In this document: piece by piece, positions 7,567-40,719 of the stretch
Position numbering within the stretch: position 1 is the first letter of the stretch
Layout of the letters: the number at the start of each line of letters is the position of its first letter
Notes under the pieces: model-generated
Told to the model about the DNA's origin: nothing
Database searches by the model: none
Seen by the model: the letters and a program-made list of their open reading frames with translations, nothing else
Sequence record: MK373786.1
Source: Escherichia phage vB_EcoM_R5505
DNA: 64,000 nucleotides
Strand: one strand, 5' to 3'
Made by a program: the position numbers and the translations under genes

Positions 7567-7596
7567 ATAATACCACGGTTTGAACTTGTTGTAAAC
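7567..7596 (-). promoter_or_regulatory. Early-type promoter (GTTTAC -35, TATTAT -10)
   Basis: Minus strand reads GTTTAC-N18-TATTAT with A/T-rich upstream element. Confidence 0.5.
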
Positions 7597-7664
7597 AACT
7601 TTGTGAAAAATATTTCAGGGAATGATAAGAAAGGAACGATAGCTTAGAATGGTAATATACAGAA

Positions 7665-15540: not shown

Positions 15541-15570
15541 ATTATACCACATCCTTGTGGCGAAGTAAAC
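15541..15570 (-). promoter_or_regulatory. Early-type promoter (GTTTAC-N18-TATAAT)
   Basis: Minus strand GTTTACTTCGCCACAAGGATGTGGTATAAT. Confidence 0.55.
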
Positions 15571-16603: not shown

Positions 16604-17512
16604 TTAAGATTTAAGTAAATCAACAATTTTAATTAATTTTTCACGCTCAGATTTAGCTTTACTACTCAATCCAGATAATCTGAAAATTTCATCGTCATAT
16701 TGTTGAATAGAAATATTCAGCTCTTCAATTTGCTTATTAAAATAATCAATTTGTTCAGAATGTTTTTCGTTACTACGAACTGGTACAAGTTTTGTAGGCA
16801 ATTTAGTTGAACTGGATTCATCCGGGCGATAAATTAAAATACAACTTGAACCAATAGGGCATTTAGCACCAGATGAATATTCTAATGTTCCGGCTTCTTT
16901 TAAAACTTCAAAAGCTAAACAGAGATGATGCCCCATATTAACATAATCTGTAGAGTGAGCTCTGATATAATAATCATCGCCGCGAATACTAAATTTAAAG
17001 CATTTAAGGTCTTCTGTATTATTGGTCTTAAAAATCATTTGTTTATCTAGACCTTTAGCTAATCGAGCGCCTAATGCTAATAATCGTCGTTGATTTTCCC
17101 ACAAATCCGCAATCATTTGATCGAATGATAATTTCGGCATTAGTCGACCATAAAGGTCATATCCTTTATTATAATTACGAAGGATTTCACTCGCGTTAAT
17201 ACGAGACAATGCTCCAATTTTATTAAGGGCTTTCATGATGCGATTAGATAAACCCATTCCAGACCCGTTTGTTCGTTGTAAATGTTTATCTAATCCAAAC
17301 CCAATATCAACTTTAAATTTATCTAAAATTTCAGCATGAACATCTCTGTCAATAACATTCAAATCCAAAGTTGGGTTAAATCTATGAAAAAATTTATCTG
17401 GCTCTCCACGACGAAGTATAGTCCATTCATTCAATTTTTTATTAACTAAAGATTTAATTACTGCATTGACATTATTAATTACTACTGACATATTTTCCTC
17501 ACTCAATTTCAA
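16604..17512 (-). CDS. Hypothetical protein with C-terminal coiled-coil, 302 aa (family member 4 of 4)
   Basis: Track ORF; C-terminal heptad-like segment (NKQIEELNISIQQYDDEIFRL...EREKLIKIVDLLKS). Confidence 0.6.
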   Translation of the reverse strand: MKLSEENMSVVINNVNAVIKSLVNKKLNEWTILRRGEPDKFFHRFNPTLDLNVIDRDVHAEILDKFKVDIGFGLDKHLQRTNGSGMGLSNRIMKALNKIGALSRINASEILRNYNKGYDLYGRLMPKLSFDQMIADLWENQRRLLALGARLAKGLDKQMIFKTNNTEDLKCFKFSIRGDDYYIRAHSTDYVNMGHHLCLAFEVLKEAGTLEYSSGAKCPIGSSCILIYRPDESSSTKLPTKLVPVRSNEKHSEQIDYFNKQIEELNISIQQYDDEIFRLSGLSSKAKSEREKLIKIVDLLKS

Positions 17513-17906
17513 TTTTACTAAATATACAGAATAAGATAGAACAGACTATATAAGCACCACACACAGATTGAACTAATACCATTCCAAAGAACCAAACAAT
17601 ATTATCAAACAATGTCTGTTTTACGTCGAAAGGACGTAAACTTACAGTAATATTATCGCCTTTTTCTATTGATGAATACATCTCTGGGGAAATATATTCA
17701 CTAAATCTATAACCGTCTTTGAGTTCATATACGGCAATAAACGATAAACTAGACCCCTTTCCTTGAGTTCCTGTAAGGGTATTAACTACAGTAACATCAT
17801 AATCTTTATAATGCATATAATCATTAATTGCGTAATAACCATATGCAACTACTACACATAAACAACATATCAATAAATTCAATCTTTTAATTATCAACTG
17901 TTTCAT
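17499..17906 (-). CDS. Membrane protein, 135 aa
   Basis: Hydrophobic N-terminal segment (LLICCLCVVVAYGYYAI) and C-terminal TM-like segment. Confidence 0.5.
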   Translation of the reverse strand: MKQLIIKRLNLLICCLCVVVAYGYYAINDYMHYKDYDVTVVNTLTGTQGKGSSLSFIAVYELKDGYRFSEYISPEMYSSIEKGDNITVSLRPFDVKQTLFDNIVWFFGMVLVQSVCGAYIVCSILFCIFSKIEIE

Positions 17907-17961
17907 AATAATCTCAATTAAAAGGGCTTAGAACCATTATACCATCCTTGGTATAAAGCGG

Positions 17962-18489
17962 TTATGCGAGTACCGTCTTTAACCGTTCTTCAAACTTCCG
18001 AAGAGTATTCTGGCGTTCAGCTCTTTGCTTTTTGTAAGTTTCAATACGCTCTGAAATGAGAGTGTATCGTTCATTTACTGATTCTTTCATAAAATCAGGA
18101 ATTTCACGAGAAGCTTTAATCTCATCAAATTTATCAATAACAGCTTGCTCTTCAGCAATTAAGTTATCATACATCAAAATATCTTTCTTGATGAACTCAA
18201 TATCTTCTTGAGTTACACGAGATAATTTAGATGCTTTATCCTTTTTGTACTGTTCGTTAGTATCACGAGACCAGTGTAATGTACGATTTTTATTCGTATT
18301 TTTGTAAATTTCTACAATACCAATCTCATCAATAATAACGATCCAATTCCAACGGGATTTGTAAATTTGTCCTCCATCAACCGTGATTTCACCTCCGATT
18401 GAGATGTCATTAAAGAACTTGCTTTGTGCTTCTGATTTAAATTTACCATCATTGTAATTTACCAGGTTGAAAATATCTTTAGCGTTCAT
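17962..18489 (-). CDS. Hypothetical protein, 175 aa
   Basis: Track ORF directly downstream of early promoter 18518-18547. Confidence 0.5.
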   Translation of the reverse strand: MNAKDIFNLVNYNDGKFKSEAQSKFFNDISIGGEITVDGGQIYKSRWNWIVIIDEIGIVEIYKNTNKNRTLHWSRDTNEQYKKDKASKLSRVTQEDIEFIKKDILMYDNLIAEEQAVIDKFDEIKASREIPDFMKESVNERYTLISERIETYKKQRAERQNTLRKFEERLKTVLA

Positions 18490-18517
18490 TTTCTGTTCCT
18501 CCGTAGTTGATAGTTGT

Positions 18518-18547
18518 ATAGTACCACAGAGGAACAGTCTTGTAAAC
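18518..18547 (-). promoter_or_regulatory. Early-type promoter (GTTTAC-N18-TACTAT) within conserved promoter cassette
   Basis: Minus strand GTTTACAAGACTGTTCCTCTGTGGTACTATACAACTATCAACTAC; same block recurs at five other sites. Confidence 0.55.
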
Positions 18548-18549
18548 CA

Positions 18550-18864
18550 CTAAAAGAAACTTCTTTCACAATTTTTTCCACTGAACCATGCGCTCACTGC
18601 TTTCTTAGTCTCAGGAGCAGTGTTATCCATAAACCATTCAAAGGCAGCCTTTTTATGATTCTGGAGGGCTTCTCGGGCTTTAATCTGCTCACGGTCTATT
18701 AACACTAACATATGAGCCTTTCTTGTCACCAAGGGCTTCTTATGATTCTTGGAGTATTCCCAGTCATTTGTCCAACGCATTGTCGTTGCGAACTGAAATA
18801 CTGCTTCTTTAATTTTAGTTTCGTAAATTTCACGAGCCTTTGAGTATAACATCATTACCTCCAT
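18550..18864 (-). CDS. Hypothetical protein, 104 aa
   Basis: Track ORF. Confidence 0.5.
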   Translation of the reverse strand: MEVMMLYSKAREIYETKIKEAVFQFATTMRWTNDWEYSKNHKKPLVTRKAHMLVLIDREQIKAREALQNHKKAAFEWFMDNTAPETKKAVSAWFSGKNCERSFF

Positions 18865-18953
18865 TTATCAGTTTAATTCTAGTCATCTTTTTGATGGCAG
18901 TCCATATAATCTATTTCTGAACTGCCTTTTTATCTTAGAAGGCCTCTTATGAA

Positions 18954-19922
18954 TTATTTCAGAAGAGTAACCTCAGCGATTTCTTCCCAACCGTTTTTGT
19001 CGGTCATAATAAAGTCAGCAAGATAAAGAGCAGTACGCAGTGAAACATTGCGTAAACGATTAACATTGACTTTCATCCATGATAATGCTTTATAAGTTTC
19101 TTCATCAGAAAGACCACGCTTTTGCATCATGTCAGTTGAAAGAATAACATCTTCAACCCTGACCATAATTTCTTCATTAGTGTGAACACCCAAATCCAAA
19201 TAAACTGAGCGGGACACTAATGCTTGTAAATGTGGAGCAAGTTTAGTACCACGGTCTAATTCGCGGTCAATGTCAACGTTTGTGATAAAAACAATCGTTC
19301 CTTTAAATTCAAACTCACGCTCAATGCCTTTTTCTTCTAAGTAAGAAGATGCAGTGCTCCAGCAGACTTTACGGGTCTCTCCAGTGTCCAGAGCAGCTTT
19401 CAGAAGATTAAGAATGTCCATATCAGAGAAAACATCCACATCATCAATCAAAAGGACAGAATTCTCTTCACGATTATTCCAAAGTTGTTCATAAAGACCG
19501 ATACCGGAGATTTTACCGTTAATGCTTTTATATTCAATGTATCCATTATCATTTGCTTTATTTAAAGCTTTATCTAAAGAATACGTTTTACCAATACCCG
19601 CCGCACCAGAAATAATTAATGAACGAATATTTCCGTTAATAATACCATTCGTCATCATTCCCATAACATTAAATCTTTTATTAATGCGGGTTTTCATATC
19701 TTCATACGATTCTTTAACTTCTTCAACTTTTACACCATCATATGAAATGTCTGATTTGTAAACCCAAACACCACGACGTTTACCGTCAATTTCAACAAAA
19801 ACTTTACCATCTCCTTGTGCATCTACCGGAGCATTATCTGGGAACCATTCACCTAAGAGCTCAAAAGTTCCAGAGATTTCTTTACCGAAGTAGATACCCT
19901 TATTGATAGTTACAGTTTTCAT
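18954..19922 (-). CDS. P-loop NTPase (AAA-like ATPase), 322 aa
   Basis: Walker A GAAGIGKT and Walker B-like VLLIDDVD motifs. Confidence 0.6.
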   Translation of the reverse strand: MKTVTINKGIYFGKEISGTFELLGEWFPDNAPVDAQGDGKVFVEIDGKRRGVWVYKSDISYDGVKVEEVKESYEDMKTRINKRFNVMGMMTNGIINGNIRSLIISGAAGIGKTYSLDKALNKANDNGYIEYKSINGKISGIGLYEQLWNNREENSVLLIDDVDVFSDMDILNLLKAALDTGETRKVCWSTASSYLEEKGIEREFEFKGTIVFITNVDIDRELDRGTKLAPHLQALVSRSVYLDLGVHTNEEIMVRVEDVILSTDMMQKRGLSDEETYKALSWMKVNVNRLRNVSLRTALYLADFIMTDKNGWEEIAEVTLLK

Positions 19923-19940
19923 TTTATTCTCCTTTGATTT

Positions 19941-19968
19941 GATAGGACTACTATAACATAGTCCTATC
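19941..19968 (-). other. Perfect 10-bp inverted repeat (hairpin) immediately 5' of the ATPase gene ribosome-binding site
   Basis: GATAGGACTA / TAGTCCTATC with 8-nt loop; no T-run follows. Confidence 0.4.
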
Positions 19969-19979
19969 AGTTTGTATAC

Positions 19980-20180
19980 TTATTTTGACATTTCTTCGAT
20001 GTCACGACGATACCCATCACGAACTTCACGAAGAGCTTCAAGGCCACACACAGGCTCGATACCAGTAATGTGAACTTGATTAATCTGATACTCTACATCT
20101 TCTAACTGAGCGAAAACATAACGACGTTCAGCTGCGCACCCAGATTTAGCTTTACCGAAACGTTTATTCAAAGTAGTCAT
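19980..20180 (-). CDS. Small hypothetical protein, 66 aa
   Basis: Track ORF downstream of early promoter 20217-20246. Confidence 0.4.
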   Translation of the reverse strand: MTTLNKRFGKAKSGCAAERRYVFAQLEDVEYQINQVHITGIEPVCGLEALREVRDGYRRDIEEMSK

Positions 20181-20216
20181 TTTGTATCTCCAATTTACTC
20201 ATTTGTTTTGATAGTT

Positions 20217-20246
20217 GTATAGTACCATAAAGCTTTATGCTTGTAA
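20217..20246 (-). promoter_or_regulatory. Early-type promoter within conserved promoter cassette
   Basis: Minus strand GTTTAC...TGGTACTATACAACTATCAA. Confidence 0.55.
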
Positions 20247-20270
20247 ACAGTTTTGTGAAAAATTTTTGAA

Positions 20271-20294
20271 ATAAAAAAGGGAGCCCGAAGGCTC
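20271..20294 (-). terminator. Intrinsic terminator
   Basis: Stem-loop GGGAGCC-TTCG-GGCTCCC followed by TTTTTT on the minus strand, directly after the nucleotidyltransferase-like gene. Confidence 0.7.
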
Positions 20295-20298
20295 CCTA

Positions 20299-21312
20299 TC
20301 ATTTATAATAACTTCGGTGGTTTTCAAGATAGACCTTCTCAAGGAAGTCATCCCAGAAACCCATGTCTACTGTTTTAGGCATACCGTTCTTAGAAGCTTC
20401 AGTAGATGCTGCTTCTACTTGATCGACCACATCTTCCAAAAACTCTTGAACTGTTTTAAATGGATGTTTACCCAACTTCACGTCGAGAATAAATGGAGCA
20501 TCTTGAAGTGGATAGACTAAGTCACCAGTTTTGTAAATTTCCAATAGTTGAAGTCCACCACGACAAGCATGACTTAGTGCTTTCCAATCAATGCCTTCAT
20601 TGGCTTCGGCCTTACGAGCACGTTCACCGTATTCAGCATCTAATTTGTTCAGTGACTGCTTAAGCTCAATAAGAGAAAGCGTTGTCTGATATTTACGACC
20701 CAACACAGTGTAGAACGTTTGTGGGCCTGTTTTCTCATGATTATGGAACACCCATTCACAGAATTCGTTTTCTGGAAGACGATGCTTAATATCTTCAACT
20801 TTAGTACGACGCTGCTTAATGGAACCGTCTTCTTGGTAATCAACCCATTGCTCAGGGATTTGATTAACTACTTTCAATACATCACGTAATGCAGCCAAAC
20901 GAGAACCCTTGACGCCGTATTTAGAAGCTTGCTTGCGGACATATCCTAAATATGATTTCATGTTAGTCGTATAAAAACGAGAACGGTTGTCTTGAATAAA
21001 CTTCCACACATCAGGCAAATCGGATTTAACCACTAGTTCAGGTGGAGTGTGAAGCATATCCAACGCTACAGTTTCACCATCTGCTGCTAATTTAAAGAAA
21101 TATTTAAGACTGTATAGTTCATGGTCAATATCATCTTTAGTGTTTTTAGATGATGTATTGTTAGTATTTTTACTCATATGCTCTTTAACATTTCCGATAA
21201 GAATATCGCGAGCAGGAGGAACAAAGATTTCTTTAAAATCTACATCAGATTCTGGGGTAGAAGTTCCATAAAGATGACTACCAAAATAGCTTTTCATTAC
21301 TGTTTTCATCAT
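20299..21312 (-). CDS. Nucleotidyltransferase-fold (Pol-beta-like) protein, 337 aa
   Basis: N-terminal motif FGSHLYGTSTPESDVDF fits the GS-x10-DxD signature of Pol-beta superfamily nucleotidyltransferases; strong hairpin terminator downstream. Confidence 0.6.
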   Translation of the reverse strand: MMKTVMKSYFGSHLYGTSTPESDVDFKEIFVPPARDILIGNVKEHMSKNTNNTSSKNTKDDIDHELYSLKYFFKLAADGETVALDMLHTPPELVVKSDLPDVWKFIQDNRSRFYTTNMKSYLGYVRKQASKYGVKGSRLAALRDVLKVVNQIPEQWVDYQEDGSIKQRRTKVEDIKHRLPENEFCEWVFHNHEKTGPQTFYTVLGRKYQTTLSLIELKQSLNKLDAEYGERARKAEANEGIDWKALSHACRGGLQLLEIYKTGDLVYPLQDAPFILDVKLGKHPFKTVQEFLEDVVDQVEAASTEASKNGMPKTVDMGFWDDFLEKVYLENHRSYYK

Positions 21313-21770
21313 TCAGCCTTATATTCAATAACAGGACATACTTTAGCTTTACGAGCTTTTAAAAATTCAACGATAACCGATTTCTTGGGTTGAATAGGAG
21401 GTAAACCTTTATACGCCCTATCAATATTTTCTACGTGTAAAGCATAATCCTTTTTCCATTTATAATCTTTATATTTTTCACGCAAATGTGCAGGAATAAC
21501 AAATGAACCGATAATAAGTAAAACAACCAAAAGCGCAAGTATAAATGCTGATGGAAGCAAAGTCCATAAACTACCAAAAATAATCCAACGTTGTAGGCTT
21601 TCTGCACAAATAATTGTTAGCCCTACGAGTATAGCACATCCAAAAATAGAAACGAAAAATGTAGGAATGGCAATAGACCAAAAATATGCGCACAGTGTCT
21701 TAGGTCGTTGCCATTCATCGTTAAACATTTTGAATAATTTATAGTGCCAAGAGTTTTCATTAATAATCAT
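21309..21770 (-). CDS. Membrane protein, 153 aa
   Basis: Several hydrophobic segments (IAIPTFFVSIFGCAILVGLTII, LLALLVVLLIIGSFVI). Confidence 0.5.
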   Translation of the reverse strand: MIINENSWHYKLFKMFNDEWQRPKTLCAYFWSIAIPTFFVSIFGCAILVGLTIICAESLQRWIIFGSLWTLLPSAFILALLVVLLIIGSFVIPAHLREKYKDYKWKKDYALHVENIDRAYKGLPPIQPKKSVIVEFLKARKAKVCPVIEYKAE

Positions 21771-21772
21771 AA

Positions 21773-22294
21773 TTATCCTTTCATTGAAGGCGTAACAGTT
21801 GTTAAATACTTAATCATAGCTTCAGCTTCTGATTTTGATAGTGAAATTTCTTCACCGTTTTGGCGAATAGAAACAAAATCTGGATGACGATCACCACCAG
21901 CTTTTAAAACACACATATAAGTATCAGCTTCGCCTTCAATATTTGAAATGATTGAAGCAGTTCCACATGAATGCGGTTTTTGATAAATCAATACAGCTTT
22001 TCTTCCACCATTTGACTGTTCATAGGCTTTTAATACATCAAGCAAATCAGTTCTTTTATCAATAGCTAAGATGTTATTTTCATCTTCAATATTAAATCCT
22101 TCGGATACTTCATAAAGAGTTACCCATAAATCACCGATGTCAATAACAGCATTTACTTTTCCACGGCTTTCAAGAGTATGACAAATTTTCTTGATTTCGT
22201 CATAACTCATTTTAATAATATCATCTCCTTGACTAAGGAAGATGTCATTTTTAAATTCAACACGAATTAAACCACTTTCACTTGAAATAAACAT
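21773..22294 (-). CDS. Hypothetical protein, 173 aa (paralog pair with 22301..22855)
   Basis: C-terminus VSIRQNGEEISLSKSEAEAMIKYLTTVTPSM resembles the C-terminus of the adjacent ORF. Confidence 0.5.
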   Translation of the reverse strand: MFISSESGLIRVEFKNDIFLSQGDDIIKMSYDEIKKICHTLESRGKVNAVIDIGDLWVTLYEVSEGFNIEDENNILAIDKRTDLLDVLKAYEQSNGGRKAVLIYQKPHSCGTASIISNIEGEADTYMCVLKAGGDRHPDFVSIRQNGEEISLSKSEAEAMIKYLTTVTPSMKG

Positions 22295-22300
22295 ATTTCC

Positions 22301-22855
22301 TCACTTTGAAATCATAGTTGGAATGACAGAATCAAGATAAGTCTTTAGCGCAATAGCTTCGTCTTTGTTTAATGTAATGATATGTGATCGAAAATCGTCA
22401 ATTTGACGAATAGATACTACATCTCCCTCTTCATAGCATTTTGACACATTTAAAATAGTTTCATCATTCTGATTGCAAGCGTTAGTAATAATAGCATTGC
22501 AATTTTTAAACCATTTTAAACTGTGTTTTCTTTCATTAGAATAATAAAAATATTTAATCTTATCTATAAAACTATCCCAATGGATAACTGATAAGCATAT
22601 TGACTCGCTTTCAATATTAAATCCTGGGCATGAAGAATAAAAATGAATTTTATGCTCATCATTAATGCTTACAATTTTATCAGTATAAGGATTTTCAATT
22701 TGGGTTAAATGAATGATTTCACTAGGCGTAAAATATAGCATATCGTCTTCTTGTGTCAAACGATACATATTATTTACTTTTTCTATAGCCAATTCACCAA
22801 AAAGTGAACTAACTTCTAATACTAATCGTTTCATATTAATCCTTTTTATTGGCAC
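22301..22855 (-). CDS. Hypothetical protein, 184 aa (paralog pair with 21773..22294)
   Basis: C-terminus VSIRQIDDFRSHIITLNKDEAIALKTYLDSVIPTM resembles the C-terminus of the adjacent ORF. Confidence 0.5.
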   Translation of the reverse strand: MPIKRINMKRLVLEVSSLFGELAIEKVNNMYRLTQEDDMLYFTPSEIIHLTQIENPYTDKIVSINDEHKIHFYSSCPGFNIESESICLSVIHWDSFIDKIKYFYYSNERKHSLKWFKNCNAIITNACNQNDETILNVSKCYEEGDVVSIRQIDDFRSHIITLNKDEAIALKTYLDSVIPTMISK

Positions 22856-23114
22856 GAATTTGTTCTAAAATTTTAGAGTATTCCTTTGTATCAGATTTAC
22901 GTACAATCGATACACTATACGGCATACTATCGGTGTCTTTTATAAAGCGTTCCAAATGACACTCTAATAAAATTTCTGGATTATAAATCGTGTACATCAA
23001 ATTACCTGTTGCTCCACGATATTGACAGATTTCTACTGATTGAACACCATTCCATAATTTTGTTAAGACCAAATCACCTACTTCTAATTTAGGAAAGCCC
23101 ATGTTATTCACCAA
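22836..23114 (-). CDS. Hypothetical protein, 92 aa
   Basis: Track ORF. Confidence 0.45.
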   Translation of the reverse strand: MVNNMGFPKLEVGDLVLTKLWNGVQSVEICQYRGATGNLMYTIYNPEILLECHLERFIKDTDSMPYSVSIVRKSDTKEYSKILEQIRANKKD

Positions 23115-23289
23115 TTAAAGTTTCAATATAAGAATCAAGATTTACTTTAGCTTCTTCCATAAGAGTTTTGTATTTAATCTTGTTAGCATGTCCGGAGAAA
23201 GCTGATTCATCAATAACTGTTGATGTATGAACAGCTCTACTATACGTCTCAATTAATTCTCTTAATTTAAAAGCCTGCTCACTTGTCAT
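23104..23289 (-). CDS. Small hypothetical protein, 61 aa
   Basis: Track ORF; first gene downstream of promoter 23422-23451. Confidence 0.4.
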   Translation of the reverse strand: MTSEQAFKLRELIETYSRAVHTSTVIDESAFSGHANKIKYKTLMEEAKVNLDSYIETLIGE

Positions 23290-23421
23290 TACATACTCCT
23301 TTGAATCATATCAATAATATTGTTCACCAGATTATAGGTAAACATTGGGTAATTATATTGAATCATCACATATATAACAAACAAAACTTTCATTCTCTTC
23401 TCCTTGACAGTTGACAAGATT

Positions 23422-24053: not shown

Positions 24054-24250
24054 GCCATGTGAGTTGCAACTTCATCACACATATTATAACGTTTCTTAAG
24101 AAGTTCTACAAGTTCTTCACTAGTAACTTCATCCATGTCGACGAAAAAATCACCATTAATGATGACGTAGATATTTCCTTCTTGATTGAGTGCTTCAATT
24201 TTCATGATGTTCTCCTCTTTATCCGATAGTTGTATAGTACCACAGCTCAA
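24017..24250 (-). CDS. Small hypothetical protein, 77 aa
   Basis: Track ORF downstream of early promoter 24234-24263. Confidence 0.4.
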
Positions 24251-24263
24251 ACGGAAAGTAAAC
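24234..24263 (-). promoter_or_regulatory. Early-type promoter within conserved promoter cassette
   Basis: Minus strand GTTTAC...TGGTACTATACAACTATCGG. Confidence 0.55.
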
Positions 24264-24273
24264 CGGTAAAATG

Positions 24274-24296
24274 AAAAAAGTCTCCCGAAGGAGACT
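24274..24296 (-). terminator. Intrinsic terminator
   Basis: Stem-loop AGTCTCC-TTCG-GGAGACT followed by TTTTT on the minus strand. Confidence 0.65.
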
Positions 24297-28399: not shown

Positions 28400-28426
28400 G
28401 TTATTCTCCTCTTAACTGATAGGAAA

Positions 28427-28456
28427 ATTATACCACAGTCAAGAGGAAAAGTAAAC
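28427..28456 (-). promoter_or_regulatory. Early-type promoter upstream of regB (GTTTAC-N18-TATAAT)
   Basis: Minus strand GTTTACTTTTCCTCTTGACTGTGGTATAAT. Confidence 0.6.
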
Positions 28457-30587: not shown

Positions 30588-31061
30588 TTATTTGAACGAT
30601 TTAACGTACTGAATAGAACCTTTACTATTTACAAAGGCAATTTTACCATTTTTATTATACATGGTAGCAGTACGTTGATAACCATAAGTTTGTTTACCAG
30701 ATTGATAACCAACTAATGCGAAATTATCTTCGCCCATTTTATTCTGTTTAGCGCGAATGCGTTCATGACCATGTGCCATAAGAACCTTAGCATCACCGGT
30801 TGCAATGGATCGACGAGTTTTTTCATCTTCAACTGTATTAACAAAGTCGTCAAATGAATCAAATTTAGCATGAGATTTATTATACAGTTTTCCATCTACT
30901 GCATAATTATATCCCTGTACATCCATCTCAACTTCTGTACCATCATCCAATACAGCAGTGATTTTTTGACCTTTTTTAAATTTCAAAAGATCAGTAAAAG
31001 ATTCAGCAATAATTTGAGAATTAATAGCTGCTTCAGTGATAAATTCTTGATATGTTTTCAT
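30588..31061 (-). CDS. Internal head protein with capsid-targeting leader, 157 aa
   Basis: N-terminus MKTYQEFITEA matches the capsid-targeting sequence of T-even internal proteins. Confidence 0.65.
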   Translation of the reverse strand: MKTYQEFITEAAINSQIIAESFTDLLKFKKGQKITAVLDDGTEVEMDVQGYNYAVDGKLYNKSHAKFDSFDDFVNTVEDEKTRRSIATGDAKVLMAHGHERIRAKQNKMGEDNFALVGYQSGKQTYGYQRTATMYNKNGKIAFVNSKGSIQYVKSFK

Positions 31062-31077
31062 ATGATTCCTTTAATTT

Positions 31078-31395
31078 TTATTCTTTAGGAAAATTTTTAG
31101 AATATGCGTCGTAAAGCTTATTTCCAATACGACGAAAAACTCTAGCTGCAAAACGATTTTCTGGGTTTTTAATCATAATTTGCATCATATAAGTACCCGC
31201 GTCTGAAAGAGCTTCTTCATAGTACCCGTTAATTTCTTTAAGAGTCCTACGTTTACCACCAGGACCATCAACAGTGATTTTCCATTTACCTGTAGAAGTG
31301 CGACTCGGCGGCTCAACTTGTTCAATCCAAATATAACCGCCTTCTACACGTTGTCCTGCAGCAGATTCTGCAATAAATTCTTGATATGTTTTCAT
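31078..31395 (-). CDS. Internal head protein with capsid-targeting leader, 105 aa
   Basis: N-terminus MKTYQEFIAESA capsid-targeting sequence. Confidence 0.65.
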   Translation of the reverse strand: MKTYQEFIAESAAGQRVEGGYIWIEQVEPPSRTSTGKWKITVDGPGGKRRTLKEINGYYEEALSDAGTYMMQIMIKNPENRFAARVFRRIGNKLYDAYSKNFPKE

Positions 31396-31404
31396 ATGTT
31401 TCCT

Positions 31405-31821
31405 TTAAATGTAAATATTTTTACCGTAATACTTATACCAATGTGGTTTCATTAAAATTTTTTCATCAAGTCGTTGTTGACTCAATTTAATAGCTGATTT
31501 GCATGGATTATAATCATTTTTCCATTCTACTGGAATATCGCTGATGTCAGGAACTTCAGTATCTTTTATACTGAACCCTCGTTTTAAGCATTCCGTTATA
31601 ATGTCTAATTGACGCTTTCGCAAAAATTCTAACTTATCGTAAAAGAAAGTAACATGACCAGAACCTAAAATAAATTTAGAAGATATTTTAAAATCTTTAA
31701 CGCGCTTACCGTTTGCCACATGCTTACGAACTATACCAAAAACACGCGGCAATTCACGGTATTCTGCGATTAAATGTTGATCAGCAAGTTCAGATACTAA
31801 AGTCAAATTAATACGAGTCAT
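31405..31821 (-). CDS. denV: Endonuclease V (pyrimidine-dimer DNA glycosylase), 138 aa
   Basis: [29 protein letters not shown]... matches T4 DenV; 138 aa. Confidence 0.95.
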
Positions 31822-31846
31822 TTTATCCCTCCAAGTAACTGTGAAT

Positions 31847-31876
31847 ATACTATCACAATTCTAGGAGAAAGTAAAC
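31847..31876 (-). promoter_or_regulatory. Early-type promoter upstream of denV
   Basis: Minus strand GTTTAC-N18-TAGTAT. Confidence 0.45.
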
Positions 31877-31880
31877 AACT

Positions 31881-32849
<969 letters not shown>

Positions 32850-35292: not shown

Positions 35293-35348
35293 AGTATTTC
35301 CTTAGGTTGGTATAATTAGATAATATCACGTTTTAATAGATTGTAAAC

Positions 35349-35684: not shown

Positions 35685-35740
35685 AATGTTTTCCTCATTT
35701 GTATAGGCTCATAATATCTCAATCATGAGCCTATGTAAAC

Positions 35741-36016: not shown

Positions 36017-36047
36017 GTTGTTTTCTGTATCAGTAGTTGATAGTTGT

Positions 36048-36077
36048 ATAGTACCATGGAAGAAAAGGGATGTAAAC
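36048..36077 (-). promoter_or_regulatory. Early-type promoter within conserved promoter cassette
   Basis: Minus strand GTTTAC...TGGTACTATACAACTATCAACTAC. Confidence 0.55.
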
Positions 36078-36210
36078 AGTTTTGTGAAAAAATTTTTAAA
36101 AAGTTTTAGGGAATTCTAGGGTCAGGAGGGGCAATTAAAAGATAGGATAATATATTATAAAGGGTAGAAACTAAATGATGCCTAGAGAGGCCCAGAAAGG
36201 CCTAGATACC

Positions 36211-36235
36211 AAAAAGTCCCAACCTTTCGGTTGGG
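36211..36235 (-). terminator. Intrinsic terminator
   Basis: Stem-loop CCCAACC-GAAA-GGTTGGG followed by TTTTT on the minus strand. Confidence 0.65.
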
Positions 36236-36245
36236 GCTAAGAATG

Positions 36246-36719
36246 TTATTTGATTTGTTTAGCAGACCAAATGCGGTCTTTAATAATTTTTTGGATGTCT
36301 TCAACATACTCAAGAGAGTGAGCATGTGGGTTATCTTTGAAACTATAAGCACGAGCTAACTTTTGACCTTCAGTTTTGATTACTAAAAGCTCTTTAAGGA
36401 TAGCTTCATATTTGGAGATAATTCCTTTAACAATATTTTTTTCTTGTGTAGCTTTAGGATCTGCTTTAGGAGCAGGTTTACCTGAAGCCTTTGCAAAAGC
36501 AGCGCCAGTAGCAACTAAACTTTTCCAGGCCATACTAACTGCATTCCCTGTAAATCCTTCGGCTTTCATATCACGAGCAAATTGGAATCGTGATTCATCG
36601 GAAGCATCTTTATAGGAATATTTACCCGCGGCAATGGCTGCTTTTGCGACAGCTTGAATTTCGGTGCTAGATGCTTCATTTAACACCGCTTCATTTAAAA
36701 ATTGAGCATATGATTTCAT
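36246..36719 (-). CDS. Internal-protein-like head protein with leader, 157 aa
   Basis: N-terminus MKSYAQFLNEA resembles the capsid-targeting leader; minus-strand TATAAATA at 36755-36762 upstream; hairpin terminator downstream. Confidence 0.55.
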   Translation of the reverse strand: MKSYAQFLNEAVLNEASSTEIQAVAKAAIAAGKYSYKDASDESRFQFARDMKAEGFTGNAVSMAWKSLVATGAAFAKASGKPAPKADPKATQEKNIVKGIISKYEAILKELLVIKTEGQKLARAYSFKDNPHAHSLEYVEDIQKIIKDRIWSAKQIK

Positions 36720-36765: not shown

Positions 36766-36792
36766 AAAAAGCCCCAACCTTTCGGTCGGGGC
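36766..36792 (-). terminator. Intrinsic terminator at the distal end of the tRNA/stable-RNA transcription unit
   Basis: Stem-loop GCCCCGACC-GAAA-GGTTGGGGC followed by TTTTT on the minus strand. Confidence 0.6.
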
Positions 36793-36799
36793 TAAGCCT

Positions 36800-37473: not shown

Positions 37474-37549
37474 TGGTCGAGGCAGTAGGGATCGAACCTA
37501 CGACCTAGGACTTAGAAGGTCCTTGCTCTTCCTTCTGAGCTATGCCCCG
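37474..37549 (-). tRNA. tRNA-Arg (anticodon TCT), CCA encoded
   Basis: Hand-folded cloverleaf: acceptor CGGGGCA/TGCCTCG, T-arm GTAGG-TTCGATC-CCTAC, anticodon loop CTTCTAA. Confidence 0.85.
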
Positions 37550-37553
37550 TAAT

Positions 37554-37629
37554 TGGGGTGACCGATGGGAGTCGAACCCATGACTACGAGAATCACAATC
37601 TCGAGTTCTACCAACTGAACTACGGCCAC
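37554..37629 (-). tRNA. tRNA-His (anticodon GTG), CCA encoded
   Basis: Hand-folded: acceptor GTGGCCG/CGGTCAC, D-arm GTTC-AGTTGGTA-GAAC, anticodon loop TTGTGAT, T-arm ATGGG-TTCGACT-CCCAT, discriminator C. Confidence 0.75.
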
Positions 37630-37745
37630 ATTAATACCTACTCCAACAATCAAGATGTCTTCACACGAAATTAAGAGAAGAGTGATCAGTTCAACCCCTA
37701 TAATCGCGTCAAGTAGATATTAATGTGACAGTTGTCACAAATTTG

Positions 37746-37817
37746 GCGGACGTGATAGGATTCGAACCTATAACCAATCGCTTAACAGGCGATCGCTCTG
37801 CCATTGAGCTACACATC
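37746..37817 (-). tRNA. tRNA-Asn (anticodon GTT), CCA not encoded
   Basis: Hand-folded: acceptor GGATGTG/CACGTCC, anticodon stem-loop ATCGC-CTGTTAA-GCGAT, T-arm ATAGG-TTCGAAT-CCTAT. Confidence 0.75.
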
Positions 37818-37821
37818 CAAA

Positions 37822-37908
37822 TTGGTGGGGAGTGGTGGAGTCGAACCACCCGAGTCGCAATGACAATGAATTTACAGTCCACACCGCTACCTCTACGGGA
37901 TAACTCCC
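37822..37908 (-). tRNA. tRNA-Tyr (anticodon GTA), long variable arm, CCA encoded
   Basis: Hand-folded: acceptor GGGGAGT/ACTCCCC, anticodon loop CTGTAAA, long variable arm, T-arm GGTGG-TTCGACT-CCACC. Confidence 0.7.
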
Positions 37909-37917
37909 CAAATTAAT

Positions 37918-37992
37918 TTGGTGGCCCTGGGTGGAATTGAACCACCATCTGGCGATTATGAGTCGCTTGCTTGAACCTTCCAGCTACAGGGC
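37918..37992 (-). tRNA. tRNA with anticodon CAT (Ile2/Met type), CCA encoded
   Basis: Hand-folded: acceptor GGCCCTG/CAGGGCC, anticodon loop CTCATAA, T-arm GGTGG-TTCAATT-CCACC; in T4 the CAU tRNA reads AUA as Ile. Confidence 0.8.
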
Positions 37993-37993
37993 C

Positions 37994-38070
37994 TTGGTGC
38001 TGATTGACGGAATCGAACCGCCGACCTTCTCATTACAAGTGAGTTGCTCTACCTACTGAGCTAAATCAGC
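37994..38070 (-). tRNA. tRNA-Thr (anticodon TGT), CCA encoded
   Basis: Hand-folded: acceptor GCTGATT/AATCAGC, D-arm GCTC-AGTAGGTA-GAGC, anticodon loop CTTGTAA. Confidence 0.85.
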
Positions 38071-38075
38071 AAAAC

Positions 38076-38165
38076 TGGCGGAGGCGATAGGATTTGAACC
38101 TATGAGTCGCCGGAGCGACTGCCGGTTTTCAAGACCGGTGCATTAAACCACTCTGCCACGCCTCC
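38076..38165 (-). tRNA. tRNA-Ser (anticodon TGA), long variable arm, CCA encoded
   Basis: Hand-folded: acceptor GGAGGCG/CGCCTCC, anticodon stem-loop ACCGG-TCTTGAA-AACCGG, long variable arm, T-arm ATAGG-TTCAAAT-CCTAT. Confidence 0.9.
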
Positions 38166-38167
38166 AG

Positions 38168-38241
38168 TCTCCATACAAGGATTTGAACCTTGGACCTCCT
38201 GATCCCAAATCAGGCGCTCTACCAAACTGAGCTACACGGAG
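38168..38241 (-). tRNA. tRNA-Pro (anticodon TGG), CCA not encoded
   Basis: Hand-folded: acceptor CTCCGTG/TATGGAG, D-arm GCTC-AGTTTGGTA-GAGC, anticodon loop TTTGGGA. Confidence 0.85.
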
Positions 38242-38251
38242 TAAATTAAAT

Positions 38252-38325
<74 letters not shown>

Positions 38326-38330
38326 AAATT

Positions 38331-38417
38331 TGGTGCGAGAAGTGGGACTCGAACCCACAAGGAAATCATTCCGCAGCATTTTAAGTGCTGTGCCTTTACC
38401 AATTTGACCATTCTCGC
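38331..38417 (-). tRNA. tRNA-Leu (anticodon TAA), long variable arm, CCA encoded
   Basis: Hand-folded: acceptor GCGAGAA/TTCTCGC, anticodon stem-loop CAGCA-CTTAAAA-TGCTG, T-arm GTGGG-TTCGAGT-CCCAC. Confidence 0.85.
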
Positions 38418-38418
38418 G

Positions 38419-38491
38419 CTGGGAATAAAGGACTCGAACCTTTGCATCTAGCAGTCAAAGTGCTATGCCTTACCAACTTGGCTAATTCCCA
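38419..38491 (-). tRNA. tRNA-Gln (anticodon TTG), CCA not encoded
   Basis: Hand-folded: acceptor TGGGAAT/ATTCCCA, D-arm GCC-AAGTTGGTA-AGGC, anticodon stem-loop TAGCA-CTTTGAC-TGCTA. Confidence 0.85.
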
Positions 38492-39796: not shown

Positions 39797-39982
39797 TTAT
39801 TCACCTTTAGAAATTTTATCCATAACAATAGCAATTAAACCAATTAAAAATGCTACTACAAGTGAAAACACATTTTCTGCTGTAGTCAATAATCCACATA
39901 TAAATCCAACAAACATTGAAAAACTAAAAGCGGAAGCAGAAATTGCAATAGCAACATTTCGAATTAATTCACAACGTTTCAT
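39797..39982 (-). CDS. Small membrane protein, 61 aa
   Basis: Two hydrophobic segments; downstream of early promoter 40011-40040. Confidence 0.4.
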   Translation of the reverse strand: MKRCELIRNVAIAISASAFSFSMFVGFICGLLTTAENVFSLVVAFLIGLIAIVMDKISKGE

Positions 39983-40010
39983 TTTATTCTCCTCAGTAGT
40001 AGATAGGGTA

Positions 40011-40040
40011 ATAGTATCACTACCCTATCTAAAAGTAAAC
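40011..40040 (-). promoter_or_regulatory. Early-type promoter (variant cassette GTGATACTATTACC)
   Basis: Minus strand GTTTAC-N18-TACTAT with flanking inverted repeat. Confidence 0.5.
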
Positions 40041-40274
40041 TTATTTTTTACGAAAAATTGATTTATATTTATCAGCCCATTTCTCGATGACTTTTTCTGG
40101 TCCATAGATAACAAAATAATCACCAAACTCTTCACCACCGAGTTGACCGAAATTATCTAATGCATCACGAAGAACTCCATGAGGCATTTCGCCCATTTTA
40201 TCTTTCTTACCAATGTAAATAAACTCAACTTTTACATCAGCAGCTTCAGCAATAAATTCTTGATACGTTTTCAT
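40041..40274 (-). CDS. Internal-protein-like small protein with capsid-targeting leader, about 77 aa
   Basis: Track ORF 40041..40292 begins at a GTG; real start placed at ATG 40272-40274 giving MKTYQEFIAEAADVK with GGAG upstream. Confidence 0.6.
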   Translation of the reverse strand: MKTYQEFIAEAADVKVEFIYIGKKDKMGEMPHGVLRDALDNFGQLGGEEFGDYFVIYGPEKVIEKWADKYKSIFRKK

Positions 40275-40310
40275 TTTATTCTCCAATTTCACATTTGTTT
40301 TGATAGGGTA

Positions 40311-40340
40311 ATAGTATCACTACTAAAACCCCGTGTAAAC
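40311..40340 (-). promoter_or_regulatory. Early-type promoter (variant cassette) upstream of the 77-aa internal-protein-like gene
   Basis: Minus strand GTTTACACGGGGTTTTAGTAGTGATACTAT. Confidence 0.5.
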
Positions 40341-40359
40341 AACTTTGTGAAATTGTTTA

Positions 40360-40647
40360 TTACAAAAGATTTTTAGCAATAATCTTGAGATGTGCTGCAG
40401 AAATGTGTTTAGCTTTAAACAACGCAGTTTCTTCGGCAGGAGAGATAACGATTGTAGCACCATCCTTTTTAGCAGACCACCCATCACCTAGGTAAACAGT
40501 ACCTTTGATTTCTTCGCCATCAACCAGACTAATCATTGGTTTACCTTCTCGTCCTTTATTTGCTTTAATAACTTCAGAAGTAAGAGTAGCTTCGGTAATG
40601 GTAGAAACCGGGGTAGTTGTAGAAGTAAATTCTTTAAATGTTTTCAT
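40360..40647 (-). CDS. ipI: Internal protein I precursor (19-aa leader plus 76-aa mature), 95 aa
   Basis: 95 aa; leader MKTFKEFTSTTTPVSTITE ending in a prohead-protease-type site; position adjacent to 57B as in T4. Confidence 0.7.
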   Translation of the reverse strand: MKTFKEFTSTTTPVSTITEATLTSEVIKANKGREGKPMISLVDGEEIKGTVYLGDGWSAKKDGATIVISPAEETALFKAKHISAAHLKIIAKNLL

Positions 40648-40677
40648 TTTATTTTCCTAATTAATTTTGATGAGATA

Positions 40678-40708
40678 ATAGTATCACTACCTCATCAGTA
40701 TGTAAACA
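40678..40708 (-). promoter_or_regulatory. Early-type promoter (variant cassette) upstream of ipI
   Basis: Minus strand GTTTAC-N19-TACTAT. Confidence 0.45.
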
Positions 40709-40719
40709 ACTTTGTGAAA

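Follow-up and report, generated by a model that had tools for sequence, protein, structure and literature searches.

A family of near-identical minus-strand blocks in the accessory regions of Escherichia phage vB_EcoM_R5505 appears to consist of T4-type early promoters that double as crossover points for accessory-gene swapping, a reading to which a probability of about 85% is assigned. The window, the whole stretch of 64,000 nucleotides analysed (sequence record MK373786.1), belongs to a Tequatrovirus. Over positions 17500-21500, identity to Escherichia phage AV122 is 99.9%, and hundreds of Tequatrovirus genomes match at 97-98%; the T4 counterpart of the region runs from nrdC through gene 57. 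An Rfam search over 15000-43000 returned only 10 tRNAs, and the cassettes were matched by no family.

Occurrence and extent of the repeated block

The sequence-only reading followed up here had described one block in four copies and a variant in three, and both recurrences were borne out by comparison with shuffled sequence. TGGTACTATACAACTATCAA lies on the minus strand without mismatch at 18507-18526, 20208-20227, and 36037-36056 and with two mismatches at 24223-24242, whereas 100 dinucleotide shuffles gave 0 matches (0 expected). GTGATACTATTACC, on the same strand, is found at 40007-40020 and 40307-40320 (0 mismatches) and at 40674-40687 (1 mismatch); its shuffle mean was 0.26, and three matches were reached in no shuffle. 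The coordinates first proposed were right to within 2-3 nt, the second interval (20205-20246) being 2-3 nt off, and the core elements are 41 nt long (18507-18547, 20208-20248, 24223-24263, and 36037-36077). The gap of 18 nt ascribed to the block is true as the spacing from hexamer to hexamer, but the distance from GTTTAC to TGGTAC is 15 nt.

All seven copies are real, but the family in the window is larger. A two-hexamer scan with hand alignment gave ~14 promoters, with the G of the -35 at 7596, 15570, 18547, 20248, 23343, 24263, 28456, 35348, 35740, 36077, 40040, 40340, 40707, and 42197 (these positions serve as names below). A -35 of GTTTAC (or one mismatch) combined with a -10 of TAnnAT fits all seven copies and seven more, and the hexamers are separated by 18 bp in all ~14 promoters except one (17 bp). 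The pattern GTTTAC-N15-20-GNTAYTAT occurs at 10 minus-strand sites, compared with 0.03 expected. The promoters and associated cassettes include the following.

7567..7608, minus strand: further early promoter with UP-like block.
15541..15570, minus strand: PnrdC.4, further early promoter, annotated in OL960580.
18507..18547, minus strand: copy 1, PnrdC.8; -35 GTTTAC 18542-18547, -10 TACTAT 18518-18523, predicted +1 A 18511; would drive nrdC.8 (17962-18489); T4 orthologue 53943; early promoter in OL960580.
19933..20207, minus strand: gene cassette absent from T4, comprising a 5'UTR, ORF66, and a degenerate promoter-like copy.
~19945-19990, minus strand: the degenerate promoter-like copy, GTATAC-N18-TATAGT-agtCCTATCAAa.
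20208..20297, minus strand: copy 2, composite; terminator 20278-20297, UP-like block 20249-20260, -35 20243-20248, predicted +1 20212; would drive ORF66 (19980-20180, phrog_6200) and then nrdC.10; T4 orthologue 55384.
23314..23343, minus strand: further early promoter, bordering the 445-bp insertion 22833-23277 (relative to T4).
24223..24296, minus strand: copy 3, PmobD.5; terminator 24279-24296, -35 24258-24263, predicted +1 24227; T4 orthologue 58780.
28404..28456, minus strand: regB early promoter; -35 28451-28456.
35320..35348, minus strand: e.6 early promoter, with the 17-bp spacer.
35711..35740, minus strand: e.7 early promoter; inverted repeat ATAGGCTCAT/ATGAGCCTAT around the -10.
36037..36089, minus strand: copy 4, Pe.8; UP-like block 36078-36089, -35 36072-36077, predicted +1 36041; T4 orthologue 70696.
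40007..40040, minus strand: variant, Ptrna.4; inverted repeat TAGATAGGGTA/TACCCTATCTA straddling the -10.
40021..40268, minus strand: extra internal-virion-protein cassette (ORF 40041-40292, phrog_8111), absent from T4.
40307..40352, minus strand: variant with UP-like block; would drive the extra internal-protein gene.
40674..40719, minus strand: variant, PipI, with UP-like block; inverted repeat TGATGAGGTA/TATCTCATCA straddling the -10.

Every copy is non-coding, with a stop codon before it and the next start codon after it, and, as the sequence-only reading had it, a small gene follows each. This position rules out coding constraint for the conservation, and an origin of the repeats by chance or as a by-product of coding is refuted, as no matches arose in shuffles and all copies fall between annotated or predicted genes.

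Promoter anatomy and relation to T4

The promoter architecture comprises an UP-like TTTCACAAARYT, a -35 of GTTTAC, an 18-bp spacer, a TGn-extended -10 of TAYTAT, and a +1 A in CTATC. At 7596, 20248, 36077, 40340, and 40707, TTTCACAAARYT abuts the -35 with an A/T run 5' of it (TTTCACAAARYT-GTTTAC, 0 expected). The first ~14 nt of the spacer are the least conserved part of the promoter. TACTAT is preceded by TGG or TGA in 7/7 of the copies originally reported, and the consensus of the extended -10 across cassettes is (T/A)G(G/A)TACTAT. The discriminator and start block, with the +1 A, reads ACAACTATC or TACCCTATC; together with the extended -10 it forms TGGTACTATACAACTATC in four copies and GTGATACTATTAYC in three.

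Conservation beyond the two hexamers was thus confirmed and reaches further than first noted, to the upstream TTTCACAAARYT block and to blocks in the 5'UTRs. Aligned with their flanks, the ~14 promoters are mosaics of sub-blocks, and the 5'UTR blocks downstream of the promoters are likewise common to copies in a mosaic pattern. The leader CTATCAAAACAAATG..AAATTGGAGA is common to 20248 and 40340, and CTATCAACTACNGA is common to 18547, 36077, and 40040, with unrelated downstream genes in both sets; the ribosome-binding block GGAGAATAAAATGAAA is present at four places. A GGAG-type Shine-Dalgarno sequence and an ATG follow within 20-45 nt downstream of every copy. The Shine-Dalgarno sequence is often GGAGAATAAAA, which fits the published RegB/S1 target, GGAGRAYARAA. 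The order of a cassette is an optional intrinsic terminator, the UP-like block, -35, spacer, extended -10, discriminator/start, leader, Shine-Dalgarno sequence, and ATG.

T4 early promoters are reportedly treated by Liebig and Rueger in 1989 and by Miller et al. in 2003. The T4 sites orthologous to those in the window lie upstream of nrdC.8, nrdC.10, mobD.5, e.8, e.7, e.6, trna.4, and ipI. Seven of 24 scanned T4 early promoters, PmotA among them, contain TGGTACTATACAACTATC, and an eighth copy at PmobD.5 has one mismatch (ACAACCATC). T4 also has blocks, reaching ~90 bp and spanning the UP region through the first codons, that are common to three promoters. In a related GenBank record (phage SA21RB), the sites are annotated as "T4 early promoter," with a terminator just upstream of several.

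Published descriptions of T4 agree with this assignment. T4 early promoters have been characterized by UP, -35, TGn, and -10 elements "with additional regions of consensus" (Hinton 2010, PMC2988021). A preprint on NAD capping gives 150 T4 start sites from dRNA-seq, with the early -10 motif TGTG(A/G)TA(C/T)(A/T)AT and a preference for A at +1 (bioRxiv 10.1101/2024.04.04.588121); the extended -10 of the copies agrees with this motif. For the T4 mobD.5 promoter, which is orthologous to the 24263 copy, a primer-extension stop was reported (Durand et al. 2006). The window promoters resemble T4 early promoters in GTTTAC, 17-18 bp spacing, a TGn-extended -10 of TA(C/T)(A/T)AT, the A/T-rich upstream region, minus-strand early-gene context, and direct orthology, with no essential difference. 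By this comparison, all copies are orthologues or paralogues of T4 early promoters. The T4 literature suggests that the sites also initiate immediate-early transcription in this phage, in which case unmodified host sigma-70 RNA polymerase would transcribe from them during the first few minutes after infection.

Relative to T4, promoters are found at new positions in this phage (the 40340/40040 duplication and 23343), and the promoters of the T4 ipII/ipIII region are absent from it.

Three causes account for the conservation beyond the hexamers. The first, already known, is the extended T4 early consensus; it includes the CTATC of the start, a motif common across lineages. A further cause is recent common ancestry with gene conversion among paralogues, since positions -6 to -2 differ from lineage to lineage yet stay uniform inside any one genome. 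The last is the conserved RegB-sensitive ribosome-binding region.

Cassette boundaries and recombination footprints

Promoter-early stem-loop (PeSL) cassettes were described by Arbiol et al. (2010, PMC2839356), and the PeSL model was extended to the T4/PST pair by Comeau et al. (2014, PMC4122927). The early promoters and the PeSL shuffling model were already known, and their recognition in this window is a rediscovery. Composite units of terminator, early promoter, Shine-Dalgarno sequence, and ATG are present at some copies here too, and, like PeSLs, the cassettes are concentrated in hyperplastic regions and flank variable ORFs. PeSL crossovers map between the -10 and the Shine-Dalgarno sequence, and the junction zone here is the same. 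Neighbouring PeSLs are also reported to recombine into mini-circles in infected cells. Unlike PeSLs, only some copies have the upstream terminator stem-loop, whereas others abut the upstream stop codon and carry a repeat straddling the -10. An intrinsic terminator lies just upstream of 20248 (20278-20297) and 24263 (24279-24296), is ~140 nt away from 36077, and is absent at 18547, 40040, 40340, and 40707. As only two of the four main copies (20248 and 24263) have it just upstream, not all copies are complete PeSLs.

The model goes back to 1994: conserved repeats of ~70 bp containing promoters occur at T-even internal-protein loci, according to the account of Repoila et al. (1994) given by Arbiol et al. 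(2010, PMC2839356). As far as that account goes, 40040, 40340, and 40707 are similar in flanking internal-virion-protein genes (phrog_8111 and phrog_4363) and in carrying weak AT-rich stem-loops. The locus order in the window is 57B, P40707, ipI, P40340, the extra internal-protein gene (phrog_8111), P40040, and trna.4, and the extra cassette is flanked by two direct promoter copies. The extra gene (40041-40292) encodes the N terminus MKTYQEFIAEA. T4 lacks this gene and has a single promoter, Ptrna.4, a chimera whose upstream half is identical to that of the 40340 copy and whose downstream half is identical to that of the 40040 copy; the crossover is located inside GTGATACTATTACCCTATC.

The nrdC.10 locus is found in three nested states. 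T4 has nrdC.10 directly after the promoter. The window has a 275-bp module (ORF66 and the degenerate promoter copy) inserted there, both joints of which lie in CTATCAA. vB_Eco_Geo has one more module at this joint, with two ORFs and an AGACC-type promoter, and in the comparison of the two phages 48 nt of window sequence align twice.

Smaller exchanges are also evident. IMG/VR contig L008, whose NrdC.8 protein is 100% identical, has 5 substitutions within 8 nt relative to its closest, near-identical relatives; the patch (TACTATACAAC to TATTATTACCC) coincides exactly with the -10/discriminator block and converts it from one type into the other. Spacers and 5'UTRs otherwise known from paralogous sites occur at orthologous promoters in relatives, one promoter precedes three alternative downstream cassettes among relatives, and the natural chimera L011/L057 combines two cassette types. 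In another lineage (~170-kb contigs), each genome carries AGACCTATC in at least 10 promoters, a sign of concerted evolution, with homogenization within genomes. The internal-protein layout of the window is kept in only 21 of 748 related records, and in 117 Klebsiella phage records the match is limited to a 73-nt promoter-to-start segment. Four IMG/VR matches to an 18-mer lacked a -35, lay in unrelated contigs, and were rejected as chance or coding matches.

Comparison of cassette boundaries among related genomes placed junctions inside the cassette repeats in individual cases, and endpoints of indels and replacements between close relatives lie in or beside the elements in clear individual cases. 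Across the window, 3 of 34 breakpoints relative to T4 fall inside the 14 cassettes, compared with ~1 expected, a weak enrichment (p=0.087). As this is not significant, the case for recombination rests on individual junctions; most rearrangements between the window and T4 involve other things, e.g., homing-endonuclease genes. The earlier proposal that promoter-bearing modules shuffle by recombination is nevertheless supported by the chimeric promoter, the nested insertions, the patch conversion, and the spacer and 5'UTR swaps, all of them traces in sequence.

Near-identical blocks of 20-90 bp, in one orientation and dispersed through accessory regions, probably serve as crossover points for the phage's efficient homologous recombination. 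Crossovers would insert, delete, or replace the small genes between blocks, and gene conversion would homogenize the blocks themselves. The footprints are traces of such exchange, whereas its pathway and frequency are inferred. They fit cassette-targeted recombination and general recombination with selection for a working promoter alike. By analogy, integron gene cassettes are also arrays of small, promoter-proximal, exchangeable accessory genes between repeated sites, with nested growth. Unlike them, the phage cassettes lack an integrase and attC, each has its own promoter, and exchange is presumably by general homologous recombination.

Hairpins in read-through RNA

When the RNA that would read through each promoter was folded, strong hairpins appeared in which the spacer provides the 5' arm. 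The variable spacer often pairs with the Shine-Dalgarno region of its own gene (nrdC.8, regB) or with the discriminator, and covariation across lineages favours such pairing. Strong cases in the window include the following.

18493..18537, minus strand: nrdC.8 hairpin at 18547; 5' arm 18523-18537 (spacer and extended -10), 3' arm 18493-18507; dG -23.8 kcal/mol, z -5.58, 0/200 shuffles as stable.
28404..28450, minus strand: regB hairpin at 28456; 28436-28450 pairs with 28404-28418, with the Shine-Dalgarno sequence inside; dG -22.0 kcal/mol, z -5.11.
35740, minus strand: e.7 hairpin, arms straddling the -10; dG -18.4 kcal/mol, z -5.61.
40040, minus strand: Ptrna.4 hairpin, arms straddling the -10; dG -19.5 kcal/mol, z -4.55.
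40707, minus strand: PipI hairpin, arms straddling the -10; dG -14.8 kcal/mol, z -3.55.

The nrdC.8 hairpin has 15 pairs, two of them G.U, and its 3' arm contains the Shine-Dalgarno sequence GGAGG at 18498-18502. RNA beginning at the predicted +1 is unstructured (0 to -1.2 kcal/mol; 0 kcal/mol for nrdC.8). A stable helix takes up the Shine-Dalgarno sequence at 18547 and 28456 but not at 20248, 24263, or 36077, and at these last three promoters no significant read-through hairpin was found (z +0.7, -0.5, and -0.9, respectively). Hairpins therefore do not explain the conservation of TGGTACTATACAACTATCAA.

The upstream part of a promoter pairs better with its own leader than with the leaders of others (permutation p=0.0025 among the 24 T4 promoters and 0.001 among the 14 of the window). 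Strong Shine-Dalgarno pairing in T4 is found at motB.2, denV, regB, nrdC.8, and ndd.4, and the class straddling the -10 is significant at 5 of the 24 promoters in T4, where 0.5 are expected, and at 4 of the 14 in the window. An alignment of 18 cassettes chosen solely by 3' sequence (A2) contains an 11-bp helix between spacer and Shine-Dalgarno sequence with 94.4% of cells paired, compared with 31-58% in slid controls. Three of its pairs change on both sides (A-U/U-A, G-C/U-A), though these compensatory changes represent few independent events, and 0 of 500 shuffles were as good. Orthologues of the regB promoter have three different arm pairs, all of which cover the Shine-Dalgarno sequence, and nrdC.8 has two Shine-Dalgarno-pairing arm designs and one -10-centred design. 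The arms are mismatched in the natural chimera L011/L057. In T4, hairpins accompany 1 of 7 terminator-preceded promoters and 11 of 17 others, a trend (Fisher p=0.07).

As a structure, the spacer-encoded anti-Shine-Dalgarno feature is well supported. Since the hairpin can form only in read-through RNA, translational insulation is suggested as the most economical reading. A tentative model is that the early-promoter spacer acts as an anti-Shine-Dalgarno or anti-discriminator arm, such that read-through RNA would be closed and own-promoter RNA open; this is possible but on balance doubtful. The hairpin would cover the next gene's ribosome-binding site in RNA arriving from upstream, and RNA started at the embedded promoter would lack the 5' arm and so be open. 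Cassettes without an upstream terminator would thus be insulated translationally. Synthesis of proteins such as RegB, DenV, and NrdC.8 would be confined to an immediate-early burst, which RegB cleavage would end.

Translational control by a promoter inside a hairpin is known for T4 e, soc, 49, and I-TevI (Uzan and Miller 2010, PMC3014915; Edgell et al. 2010, PMC2988022). In the proposed model, as in these genes, the Shine-Dalgarno sequence would be paired in transcripts from upstream promoters, and the proximal promoter would start inside the hairpin and yield translatable RNA. In e, soc, 49, and I-TevI, however, late (or middle) promoters delay expression, whereas here the proximal promoter is early and itself supplies the 5' arm, through its -35/-10 spacer. 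The early-promoter version would restrict translation to the immediate-early transcript, the reverse of the known cases. No description of a spacer anti-Shine-Dalgarno arm for early promoters was found in the literature searched, and earlier accounts of spacer/Shine-Dalgarno pairing may exist.

Alternative explanations

The copies might be alike through independent selection for maximal early-promoter strength, with no special role in shuffling. T4 early promoters do carry consensus positions beyond the hexamers (Hinton 2010, PMC2988021), the CTATC start motif is common to otherwise different subfamilies and lineages, and the enrichment of breakpoints relative to T4 falls short of significance. 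Strength alone, however, would fit poorly with positions -6 to -2 that vary between lineages (ACAAC, TACCC, AGACC) and are uniform within a genome, with whole 5'UTRs common to unrelated genes, or with the junctions of the chimeric promoter, the 5-in-8-nt patch, and the nested insertions, which fall inside the blocks; this explanation is very improbable. Only slightly less improbable is that the discriminator/leader block (ACAACTATCAAC...) is mainly an RNA signal at the 5' end of early mRNA, read by a nuclease, S1, or a phage factor. The block does run on into the transcribed leader, and the downstream GGAGAATAAAA matches the RegB/S1 target, but half of the block (ACAACT) is upstream of the predicted +1, leaders differ among copies past CTATC, and lineage-specific variants speak against a fixed recognition sequence. 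Promoters that are also crossover points for accessory-gene swapping remain the preferred reading of the blocks.

The inverted repeats around the -10 could have a role other than translational gating, either as cruciform or hairpin DNA targeted for recombination or nicking or as 3'-end, processing, or stability signals of the upstream transcript. The -10-centred hairpins (35740, 40040, 40340, and 40707) exclude the Shine-Dalgarno sequence and lie a few nucleotides past the upstream stop codon, at known recombination junctions, and Arbiol et al. (2010, PMC2839356) speculated that PeSL stem-loops are protein targets. Such roles are nonetheless unlikely: in the Shine-Dalgarno class, several arm designs that are unrelated to one another give exact pairing with the ribosome-binding site, and the helices tolerate G.U pairs, which would be mismatches in DNA and on the antisense strand and so point to RNA of the sense strand. 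The hairpins are also not followed by a U-tract and are therefore not intrinsic terminators.

Implications

For annotation of this genome, the cassettes mark transcription units, accessory cassettes (ORF66 and the extra internal protein), and recombination-prone joints. If the promoter spacer does serve as an anti-ribosome-binding-site arm, translation would depend on which promoter made the RNA, adding a post-transcriptional layer to the T4 distinction between immediate-early and delayed-early expression. This would account for the conservation of spacers within cassette types, and recombination inside the conserved -10 block would be constrained, with chimeras breaking the helix. Insulated expression cassettes could then also be designed synthetically by a simple rule.

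Terminators and gene content around the promoter cassettes

Two copies of a terminator hairpin flank an ORF of the window that has no counterpart in T4:

36218-36235, minus strand, terminator hairpin CCCAACCGAAAGGTTGGG with T-run
36246-36719, ORF of 157 aa (phrog_2280)
36770-36793, minus strand, second copy of the hairpin and T-run

When the window is aligned with T4, a single 35-bp T4 segment matches both hairpins. Because the duplicates enclose a T4-absent ORF and share one T4 match, terminators, too, may act as cassette boundaries.

The window has 10 tRNA genes (37477-38491) versus 8 in T4, and segB, located among the T4 tRNA genes, is missing from this interval. T4 ipII and ipIII are absent (window 30588-31900). 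The denV gene (31405-31821) adjoins the lysozyme gene e and is only 79% identical to that of T4; immediately downstream are two unrelated ORFs (30588-31061 and 31078-31395), at which the window-T4 alignment ends, inside the 3' end of vs.8. Other ORFs stand in place of the T4 homing-endonuclease gene mobD (21314-22275), and the early promoter whose -35 begins at 23343 is followed by 445 bp of inserted DNA (22833-23277; phrog_3215 and phrog_4859). The 73 nt from the -10 of the trna.4 promoter to the start of trna.4 (39951-40023) are 93% identical in 117 Klebsiella phage records, in which matching is confined to this stretch and the flanks have no match at the DNA level.

Leader sequences and spacer pairing

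A ribosome-binding block, GGAGAATAAAATGAAA, is repeated four times in the window:

19917-19932, ribosome-binding block
39977-39992, ribosome-binding block
40269-40284, ribosome-binding block
40642-40657, ribosome-binding block

The block is identical to the published RegB/S1 cleavage consensus, and RegB shut-off of the cassettes bearing it is therefore probable. At the regB promoter (28404-28456) and at T4 promoters 8218, 65413, 62797, 53943, and 166807, the spacer is complementary to the Shine-Dalgarno region of the promoter's own gene. Among regB orthologues, this pairing is retained in three lineages with three different arm sequences. A small hairpin lying wholly within the spacer, CCACAAGGATGTGG, is found at window 15547-15560 and T4 2458, 50973, and 167086; the extended -10 forms its 3' arm, and the hairpin recurs in several promoters.

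Promoter change in related phages

The nrdC.8 promoter of a related locus (L008; IMG/VR 2974787500, 1150-1180) has 5 changes in 8 nt of the -10/discriminator block relative to window 18510-18525 and is near-identical outside this patch, the footprint of a short-patch conversion of the block. On the same contig, two family promoters (L093 and L075) lack the UP block and -35, which were lost through deletions joining an upstream terminator stem to the spacer; both look like degraded half-cassettes. In a sister lineage (L015-L060, ~170-kb IMG/VR contigs), at least 10 promoters of each genome have AGACCTATC rather than ACAACTATC following the -10, which indicates that the promoter block is homogenised lineage by lineage.
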